Shown piece by piece: positions 4,373-4,757 of a DNA stretch of 14,967 nt; within the stretch, counting starts at the first letter, position 1, and each line of letters starts with the position of its first letter. The stretch lies in UHGV virus genome UHGV-1809322; one strand, 5' to 3'. The notes under the pieces were generated by a model. The model had not been told where the DNA came from, made no database searches, and was given only the letters and a program-made list of their open reading frames with translations. The translations under genes were made by a program, and so were the position numbers. The DNA comes from a virus.

Positions 4373-4394
4373 CCTCTTCTGTGAGTATGATTAA

Positions 4395-4582
4395 CTCACC
4401 ACCAGAGGTTGCAATCTCGTGGTGGTGAGACGTACAGGGTTGCAACAACCGGTCACAGAAGCACCCGGCCCGTCTTTCAACGGCCCTGCACGCCCCACCA
4501 TAAACTGGATGTAGCAGTGCATCACACACAAAAAAACCGCTTGAGCGCGGTCGTGCGCTTCTGTGAAAACGGGGTTGCAATC
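4395..4582 (-). promoter_or_regulatory. Structured leader upstream of the minus-strand operon: three copies of GGTTGCAAYC (4407-4414, 4438-4445, 4573-4580), the first in the loop of a ~12-bp hairpin (4395-4429)
   Basis: Hairpin CTCACCACCAGAG … CTCGTGGTGGTGAG with GTTGCAAT in the loop. Copy 2 is itself a mini-palindrome (GGTTG CAA CAACC). The core TTGCAA is self-complementary. All copies lie in the ~270-bp non-coding region 5' of the operon start. Confidence 0.35.
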
Positions 4583-4757
4583 CCGATACTGGATTTTGCC
4601 AGTACGCTATTACGCTACCCCACCTAAAACCCTGCCGTCAACAGGATTTTTTTCACAGGCGACACCGCGTAATACTATACTAACGATTTCATTTAATGAC
4701 CACAAAAGACTCATAAGATAATCATACAATGACCATTTGATGCGTATGGAATGGTTA

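Follow-up and report, generated by a model that had tools for sequence, protein, structure and literature searches.

A likely P1 immI-type immunity module with its own specificity in a P1-like Escherichia coli phage-plasmid

Overview of the leader

The region studied here is the leader (positions 4373-4757) of an operon encoding an antirepressor-like protein, on a 14,967-nucleotide (nt) stretch of the virus genome UHGV-1809322 (hereafter the window, meaning the whole stretch). This leader is very probably an immunity module of the immI type described for phage P1, and it is encoded on the minus strand. The region is clearly a new instance of a known system, with its own specificity type, in an undescribed P1-like Escherichia coli phage-plasmid. 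Matches to RNA families, the fold, the complementarities between its parts, the co-variation of these complementarities across relatives, and the identities of the genes are established. The key to the anatomy was the annotated P1 record, which lists a1, b1, c4, a2, b2, icd and an ant1 gene that overlaps icd.

The original prediction for this region pointed to three copies of the motif GGTTGCAAYC in hairpin contexts and suggested RNA-based or operator-based control of immunity. The motifs are real. A search of the window located GGTTGCAATC exactly at 4407-4416 (copy 1) and 4573-4582 (copy 3), and GGTTGCAACA at 4438-4447 (copy 2) matches nine of the ten motif positions. Allowing at most one mismatch, the whole 15-kb window contains 8 strand-matches, against 2.6 expected (5 of 200 shuffles reached 8), and three of the five sites involved fall inside 176 bp. 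The neighbouring genes (3884-4372 and 3084-3887) are encoded by the minus strand, and the leader is therefore read as the reverse complement, so that the RNA contains GAUUGCAACC twice and UGUUGCAACC once. A second complementary triplet is also present, with CTTCTGTGA at 4376-4384 and 4558-4566 and its reverse complement at 4453-4461; its members, here called b1, b' and b2, form a complementary set (UCACAGAAG against CUUCUGUGA). A repeat finder independently recovered both triplets (repeats D2, D7, I4, I6 and I7). Because the parts and their order are those of the P1 annotation, motif copies 1, 2 and 3 are assigned as a2, a' and a1, respectively. The original prediction missed the b triplet, the intrinsic terminator and the 88-nt C4 fold, and its remark that the sequence was not a recognised one did not hold, since the region matches the Rfam families C4 and isrK. 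Features of the leader, in the direction of transcription, are as follows.

4674-4702, minus strand: distal promoter-like site, TGGTCA-17-TATAGT, predicted by a consensus scan
4612-4641, minus strand: proximal promoter candidate, TTGACG-18-TAGCGT, recognised by eye, with a weak -10
4530-4605, minus strand: IsrK-like short RNA (Rfam isrK RF01394, 62.4 bits against a gathering score of 50)
4574-4580, minus strand: a1, UUGCAAC, in the loop of hairpin CGGG/CCCG at 4570-4585; motif copy 3
4555-4566, minus strand: b1, UCACAGAAGCGC, complementary to the loop of C4 hairpin 2; inverted repeat I1
4552-4535, minus strand: intrinsic terminator, followed by a U run
4418-4505, minus strand: C4 antisense RNA gene (Rfam RF01695, 71 bits against a gathering score of 45)
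4453-4464, minus strand: b', GUGCUUCUGUGA, in the loop of C4 hairpin 2; repeats I6 and I1
4439-4446, minus strand: a', GUUGCAA(C), GUUGCAAC, unpaired in the Rfam model and in the minimum-energy fold; motif copy 2
4395-4429, minus strand: a2 hairpin with stem CUCACCACCA/UGGUGGUGAG (fold -21.3 kcal/mol, z = -5.3)
4408-4414, minus strand: a2, UUGCAAC, in the loop of the a2 hairpin; motif copy 1
4373-4384, minus strand: b2, UCACAGAAG (4376-4384), running into the Shine-Dalgarno sequence GAGG (4373-4376) of the first gene, orf159

The C4 RNA and its complementarities

An Rfam scan of the window gave a full-length match to the C4 antisense RNA family (model positions 1-87 of 87). The mature RNA probably spans 4499-4421, judging by homology to the 77-nt C4 of P1. 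Its minimum-energy fold (-47.3 kcal/mol, z = -4.6) has the same structure as the Rfam model: a long closing stem that ends in ...CCACC encloses two hairpins and an unpaired junction segment. Folding and covariance analysis across homologous loci had been proposed as a check on the original prediction, and both the C4 fold and the a2 hairpin are supported by it. When 57 distinct relatives are aligned, pairing is kept in 97.6% of the cells in the C4 stems, and 11 pairs are changed on both sides; the covariation score is 0.359, compared with at most 0.076 when the pairing partner is slid.

The a' segment is a perfect 8-nt palindrome that is complementary to both a1 and a2. Copy 2 was originally described as forming a mini-hairpin of its own. 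Although a 5-bp GGUUG/CAACC stem is possible on paper, the minimum-energy fold and the conserved C4 structure both leave this segment unpaired, as the stretch that separates hairpin 2 from the closing stem. Within the window, Watson-Crick pairing extends over 7 bp for a':a1, 7 bp for a':a2 and 9 bp for b':b2, and over 10 bp (or 12 bp if one G-U is included) for b':b1. Predicted duplex energies are -8.4 kcal/mol for both a':a1 and a':a2, -13.1 kcal/mol for b':b2 and -20.9 kcal/mol for b':b1; for the palindromic combinations they are -9.7 (a':a') and -5.5 kcal/mol (a1:a2).

A small open frame also runs through the whole C4 gene on the minus strand, from 4522 (or 4501) to 4391, a length of 43 (or 36) codons. 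It ends at a TAA (4393-4391) located 28 nt before orf159 and corresponds to 'orf45' of the Salmonella prophage Gifsy-1. No Shine-Dalgarno sequence precedes this frame in the window.

Downstream targets and the start of orf159

Downstream of C4, the complements of a' and b' are a2, in a hairpin loop, and b2, at the ribosome-binding site of the first open reading frame. Copy 1 had been placed in the loop of a ~12-bp hairpin about 35 nt upstream of the start codon. The loop position is correct, and the strong hairpin ends 32 nt before ATG 4363; its stem is built from a perfect 10-bp helix plus 3 inner pairs. Structure prediction places a2 inside a hairpin in 86 of 86 relatives. In the 57-sequence alignment 86% of its cells are paired, compared with at most 58% in slid controls, and 4 pairs are changed on both sides. 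The C4 closing stem uses the 5' arm of this hairpin, CUCACCACCA, as its 3' strand, so that an unprocessed transcript can form only one of the two structures at a time.

We place the start of orf159 at ATG 4363 rather than at the mechanically assigned 4372 because its 17 full-length homologues are all 159 amino acids (aa) long and because GAGG is situated 9 nt upstream of this ATG.

Upstream copy of the targets and promoters

A second copy of the targets, a1/b1, lies upstream of C4 in the same transcript. It falls within the match to the isrK family, which comprises two 5' hairpins and an intrinsic terminator, as found here. In order, the IsrK-like RNA consists of hairpin 1 (loop GCAAAAUC), hairpin 2 (loop with a1; 4-bp stem and 8-nt loop), single-stranded b1, and the terminator hairpin with its U run. 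It is equivalent to the a1/b1 region plus an intrinsic terminator. The offset of a1 from C4 (~-79) is that of a1 in relatives, and the b1 offset (~-64) is typical of the family.

From the proximal promoter candidate, transcription would begin near G4605, where the isrK model has its first base. Its region (TTGACGG...TAGCGTAATAG) is conserved in relatives L127 and L132, and an Stx2 phage locus (L002) has a strong TTGACT-17-TATATT at the equivalent place. The distal -10 is retained in relatives as TATAGT, TATAAT or TAGGAT.

Two other features were noted in this part of the leader. In hairpin 1 (4586-4605), the loop is constant while the a and b elements vary (also in L127, L130, L132 and L136-L138). 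No complementary partner for this loop was identified in C4, and it might be a binding site for Hfq or another protein. Also present is a direct repeat, TGGTCATT(AA/GT)ATGA, with minus-strand copies at 4689-4702 and 4722-4735 (33 bp apart), one of which overlaps the -35 of the distal promoter-like site. The 14-nt form TGGTCATTNNATGA has no further copy in the window and one copy among 130 loci. The repeat is a candidate operator for the prophage repressor. The consensus operator of P1 C1 has no match in the window at up to 3 mismatches.

Proposed mechanism

Processing, repression, polarity and decoy action would follow the schemes developed in work on P1 and Gifsy-1. Transcription from one or two promoters at ~4702-4612 would produce a1, b1 and then the terminator at 4552-4535. 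Transcripts that stop at the terminator would be released as the short IsrK-like RNA, and those that read through would carry C4 (4499-4421), to be excised from the precursor as in P1. P1 C4 is cut from a precursor, its 5' end by RNase P; the P1 scheme goes back to Citron and Schuster (1990/1992) and Heinrich et al. (1994), as cited in PMC8546580 and PMC12197685. Once free, C4 would pair through a' (GUUGCAA) with the a2 loop (4408-4414) and through b' (CUUCUGUGA) with b2 (4376-4384) beside the Shine-Dalgarno sequence, and this pairing would block translation of orf159. The block would spread to the antirepressor-like gene by translational coupling at an ATGA overlap and probably by Rho-dependent polarity. 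With the antirepressor silenced, the prophage repressor would therefore stay active. The upstream a1/b1 would serve as a target mimic that, as a short RNA or in cis, sequesters C4 and relieves repression, as IsrK does in Gifsy-1. The a and b sequences would set the immunity specificity, the GGTTGCAAYC motifs representing the a-type of this phage.

Several points weigh against the assignment to the immI type. The Rfam model for the a1/b1 region itself (c4-a1b1, RF03163) scores 35.3 bits at 4566-4618, below its gathering score of 46.7; this match overlaps the isrK match, which covers the same stretch. Both promoters are consensus-level predictions. The first gene, orf159, occupies the position of P1 icd, yet is unrelated to it. 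The a':a' self-duplex is predicted to be slightly stronger than a':a1 or a':a2, so that C4 could partly sequester itself. Finally, the decoy b1 binds b' more strongly than the target b2 does, which makes the balance between repression and decoy action unpredictable from sequence.

Comparison across relatives

IMG/VR was scanned for the conserved 5' end of C4, which yielded 120 DNA stretches. Together with the loci of P1, Stx2 phages, Gifsy-1 and phage-plasmids, these gave 85 unique modules with 14 a' types and 36 b' types. Pairing was measured as the longest Watson-Crick run between each C4 and its own targets or, for the non-cognate set, the targets at loci whose element differs. Median cognate pairing is 7 bp for a1, 7 bp for a2, 7 bp for b1 and 9 bp for b2, compared with 4 bp for non-cognate pairs, of which at most 2.2% reach the cognate median. 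The targets occur at fixed offsets from C4 (a1 ~-79, b1 ~-64, a2 ~+7 and b2 ~+37). At 50-64% of the non-Watson-Crick positions in the b':b1 and b':b2 alignments a G-U pair is formed, which points to pairing at the level of RNA rather than to a DNA site.

In phage-plasmids with a closely related orf159 (aa identity 94%, 91% and 70%), the a and b elements are quite different from those of the window, and every C4 there matches the elements of its own locus. The leader is identical in contigs from other samples that have the same neighbouring genes (L131 and L134). Megablast searches of phages, plasmids and complete E. coli genomes gave no match for the leader region, nor for the window DNA; the sensitive blastn mode alone recovered the leaders of Stx2 phages. 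Tandem C4 genes of different a'/b' types were seen in single IMG/VR prophage contigs, with three copies 656 bp apart in L021 and two copies each in L039 and L119.

The comparison bears on two ideas contained in the original prediction, which reasoned from the self-complementarity of TTGCAA. One is that the palindrome itself is functional, with the UUGCAA cores allowing a1/a2 loop kissing or dimers of C4 as the regulatory event. We consider this improbable. It is true that a' is perfectly palindromic, that a':a' and a1:a2 duplexes are predicted, and that a1, a' and a2 are all presented unpaired in loops or in the junction. However, UUGCAA is confined to two a' types out of 14; the remaining 12 lack self-complementarity yet have this architecture as well, and given this majority a functional palindrome is unnecessary. 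Relatives use non-palindromic a-elements, such as UUGACAG, UUAGCAG, UUGCUAC and UUGGCGU, which are always matched by the reverse complement in their own C4, and the argument from self-complementarity is not supported. The a1:a2 duplex is also weaker than a':a1 or a':a2. As the window sequence is one compensated base pair away from the Stx2 type, the palindrome is most simply an accident of the specificity code.

The other idea, that the motifs are DNA operators at which a dimeric repressor shuts the operon promoter, can be given very little credence. The palindromic core and the presence of three copies near the operon start are what such a model would draw on. All three copies, however, are in the transcribed leader, 25-230 nt downstream of the predicted transcription starts, and none overlaps a -35 or -10. 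Each takes its position from an RNA structure with covariation support, the elements are non-palindromic in most relatives, and the parallel b set tolerates G-U wobbles. The pattern is thus not that of a protein operator array, in that the elements vary while RNA complementarity is kept. The genetics of P1, again from Citron and Schuster (1990/1992; cited in PMC8546580), is also said to assign the control function to RNA.

Relationship to known systems

An antisense RNA, which the original prediction listed as one option while noting a resemblance to the antirepressor regions of P1-family phages, is borne out by the C4 and isrK matches above gathering scores, by an order of parts that matches annotated P1 immI and Gifsy-1, and by a homologue of P1 Ant1 in the operon. 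Like the immI regions of P1 and P7, the leader has one or more promoters, a1, b1, a terminator-like hairpin, C4, a2 in a hairpin loop and b2 at the ribosome-binding site. These are followed by a first open reading frame and then by an antirepressor gene that overlaps it by ATGA. The P1 elements are a1 TTGACAG, b1 GTTAGTGC, a2 TTGACAG and b2 GTTAGTGA, the last of which extends into the Shine-Dalgarno sequence of icd. P1 and the window share the C4 fold, and a-type pairing is 7 bp in both. The differences are that the a-type of the window is palindromic, that its first gene encodes 159 aa unrelated to the 73-aa Icd, that its antirepressor has a different C-terminal domain, and that the window lacks the C1-operator consensus; the element also probably has more than one such cassette. 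Because the a and b sequences differ from those of P1 and P7, the element should be heteroimmune to both.

In Gifsy-1, isrK (34240-34316) and C4 (34131-34214) similarly precede an antirepressor-like gene (STM2616, 33513-34076), and the gap between isrK and C4 is 25 nt there and 24 nt in the window. IsrK of Gifsy-1 also ends in an intrinsic terminator with read-through, and an open frame passes through its C4 region. Unlike in the window, the c4-a1b1 model passes in Gifsy-1 (48.1 bits), and the small open frame reaches anrP directly, whereas in the window orf159 intervenes and the small frame ends before it. The host of the Gifsy-1 module is a lambdoid prophage rather than a P1-like plasmid prophage.

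Experiments in Gifsy-1 found that IsrK supplied in trans raised anrP translation more than 100-fold, that the IsrK mutations G28A and G31A were compensated by the downstream changes C162U and C159U, and that a processed RNA of ~80 nt, STnc1160, derives from the region after IsrK (PMC4825925). Under the P1 scheme, these results would correspond to a1:a' pairing and to a C4 homologue, although the authors did not call the region by that name. Phage P1, immI and RNase P are not mentioned in the IsrK paper (PMC4825925). Activation of the downstream operon in trans by the short form, and binding of Hfq, are experimental properties associated with isrK (PMC4825925).

That work suggests another way in which the leader could operate, namely as a cis-structural switch with an activating small RNA (Hershko-Shalev et al., Gifsy-1). 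The full-length leader would be translationally inactive, with a1/b1 paired in cis to the C4 region; the IsrK-like RNA would open this fold in trans, and the small open reading frame (4522/4501 to 4393-4391) would be translated and couple to the genes downstream, with free C4 unneeded. We regard this as rather unlikely. The isrK match above its gathering score, with its terminator, and the Gifsy-1-like architecture agree with it, as do the frame that is open through C4 (36-43 codons in the window, 45 in Gifsy-1) and the fact that the a2 hairpin and the closing stem of C4 exclude one another. The switch also has experimental support in Gifsy-1 (PMC4825925). Against it, the frame is closed after 14 codons in P1 and after 8-32 codons in several relatives, although it is open in many others, and in the window a Shine-Dalgarno sequence is lacking. 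A free C4 is in keeping with the tRNA-like closing stem, which is conserved and covaries strongly, and with the processed ~80-nt RNA of Salmonella. Moreover, relatives contain orphan C4 genes with no downstream operon, which make sense only if C4 acts in trans. The switch and the C4-based mechanism are largely compatible, in that the decoy could act on free C4 and equally on C4 that is part of a longer transcript.

At the DNA level, the leader is nearest to that of Stx2a-converting phages, with which it shares 78% nucleotide identity over 209 nt. Their a-type is one compensated pair away (UUGCUAC/GUAGCAA, compared with UUGCAAC/GUUGCAA in the window), and this change creates the palindrome of the window. 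They differ in b-type, and their downstream protein is not related to that of the window, BLASTP giving no alignment. In the Stx2a and lambdoid records that were examined, the C4 leader region is unannotated (H1) or the record has no annotation at all.

A further comparison is with the CI RNA of phage P4 and its sites seqA and seqC. There too, a processed RNA pairs with two sites that flank its own gene in the same transcript (PMC4825925). SeqA has been called a homologue of IsrK (PMC4825925). The P4 RNA differs in acting mainly through premature transcription termination and in controlling replication genes rather than an antirepressor.

Genes of the controlled operon and the host element

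The two genes downstream of the leader are as follows.

3884-4363, minus strand: orf159, the first gene, 159 aa (17 of 18 homologues are exactly 159 aa)
3084-3887, minus strand: Ant-like antirepressor, 267 aa (52% identity to P1 Ant1 residues 116-233, E = 1e-31)

The eighteenth homologue of orf159 (P0018) is a partial match of 133 aa. Searches of Pfam and PHROG assigned the protein to no family, and an AlphaFold model built from 14 homologues is poor (predicted local distance difference test, pLDDT, 48). BLASTP did not align orf159 with the product of the gene that directly follows C4 in the Stx2 phage.

The 267-aa protein matches PHROG families for anti-repressors and transcription regulation. 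The original description of the operon as KilA-like survives in the name that NCBI gives this protein, 'KilA-N domain-containing protein', but not in its homology: BLASTP matches P1 Ant1, and P1 KilA was rejected as a homologue (E = 0.38). Its start overlaps the stop of orf159 in an ATGA, which suggests translational coupling between the two genes. The gene content, an Ant1 homologue with this overlap, fits an operon that C4 would control. Across cassettes, the Ant-like proteins (window 3084-3887, L127:3477-4253 and L132:3480-4235) are almost identical in the C-terminal half (~120-260). Their N-terminal domains differ, being P1 Ant1-like in the window and Phage_pRha in the others.

The window's host element resembles P1. 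A fused Dcm/Dam-type methyltransferase similar to P1 Dmt is encoded at 82-2316, its 5' end cut by the window edge. A P1-like structural block (7427-14950) includes phrog_1014, a tail sheath, phrog_1053 and a PmgG-like protein. The sheath is 41% identical to P1 gp22, and protein identity to P1 is only ~40%. The 267-aa protein of the locus is carried by E. coli contigs of ~96 kb.

Multiple cassettes and orphan C4 genes

An E. coli assembly that contains the window's orf159 also has at least two further paralogues that are 92-99% identical. A P1-like element of Enterobacter cloacae (IMGVR_UViG_2600254917_000001; 95,253 bp; L136, L137 and L138) encodes three complete isrK-C4-orf159-antirepressor cassettes, at three positions and with three different matched a/b specificities. 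Also present on this element are two orphan C4 genes (L138:150-236 and L137:952-1035), which score 60.8 and 63.4 bits, above the Rfam gathering threshold. Neither a2/b2 sites nor an open reading frame were found downstream of these orphans. The a' of the first, L138:150-236 (UUGUUGCAACCC), is identical to that of the window, and its b' loop is different.

Tentatively, the module may be one of several orthogonal C4-antirepressor cassettes carried by a single P1-like phage-plasmid, with the a and b elements forming a combinatorial RNA 'immunity code'; we consider this possible, if rather doubtful. Were it so, the orphan C4s would act purely in immunity, as RNAs that keep the antirepressors of rival phages silent, and the palindromic a' of the window cassette might add self-dimerisation of C4.

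Implications

In summary, the analysis assigns an immI-like immunity region to a divergent and hitherto undescribed P1-like phage-plasmid of E. coli and predicts the immunity specificity of this element from its sequence. It also makes explicit that IsrK of Salmonella would be the a1/b1 decoy of a C4 module, and so joins the literatures on IsrK and on P1 C4, which apparently do not cite each other on the decoy. The multiple orthogonal cassettes and orphan C4 genes of the relatives are more interesting than the module itself. Orthogonal a/b pairs, multi-cassette genomes and orphan C4s could serve as ready-made orthogonal RNA switches, and in the relatives they suggest RNA-based cross-immunity between phages.

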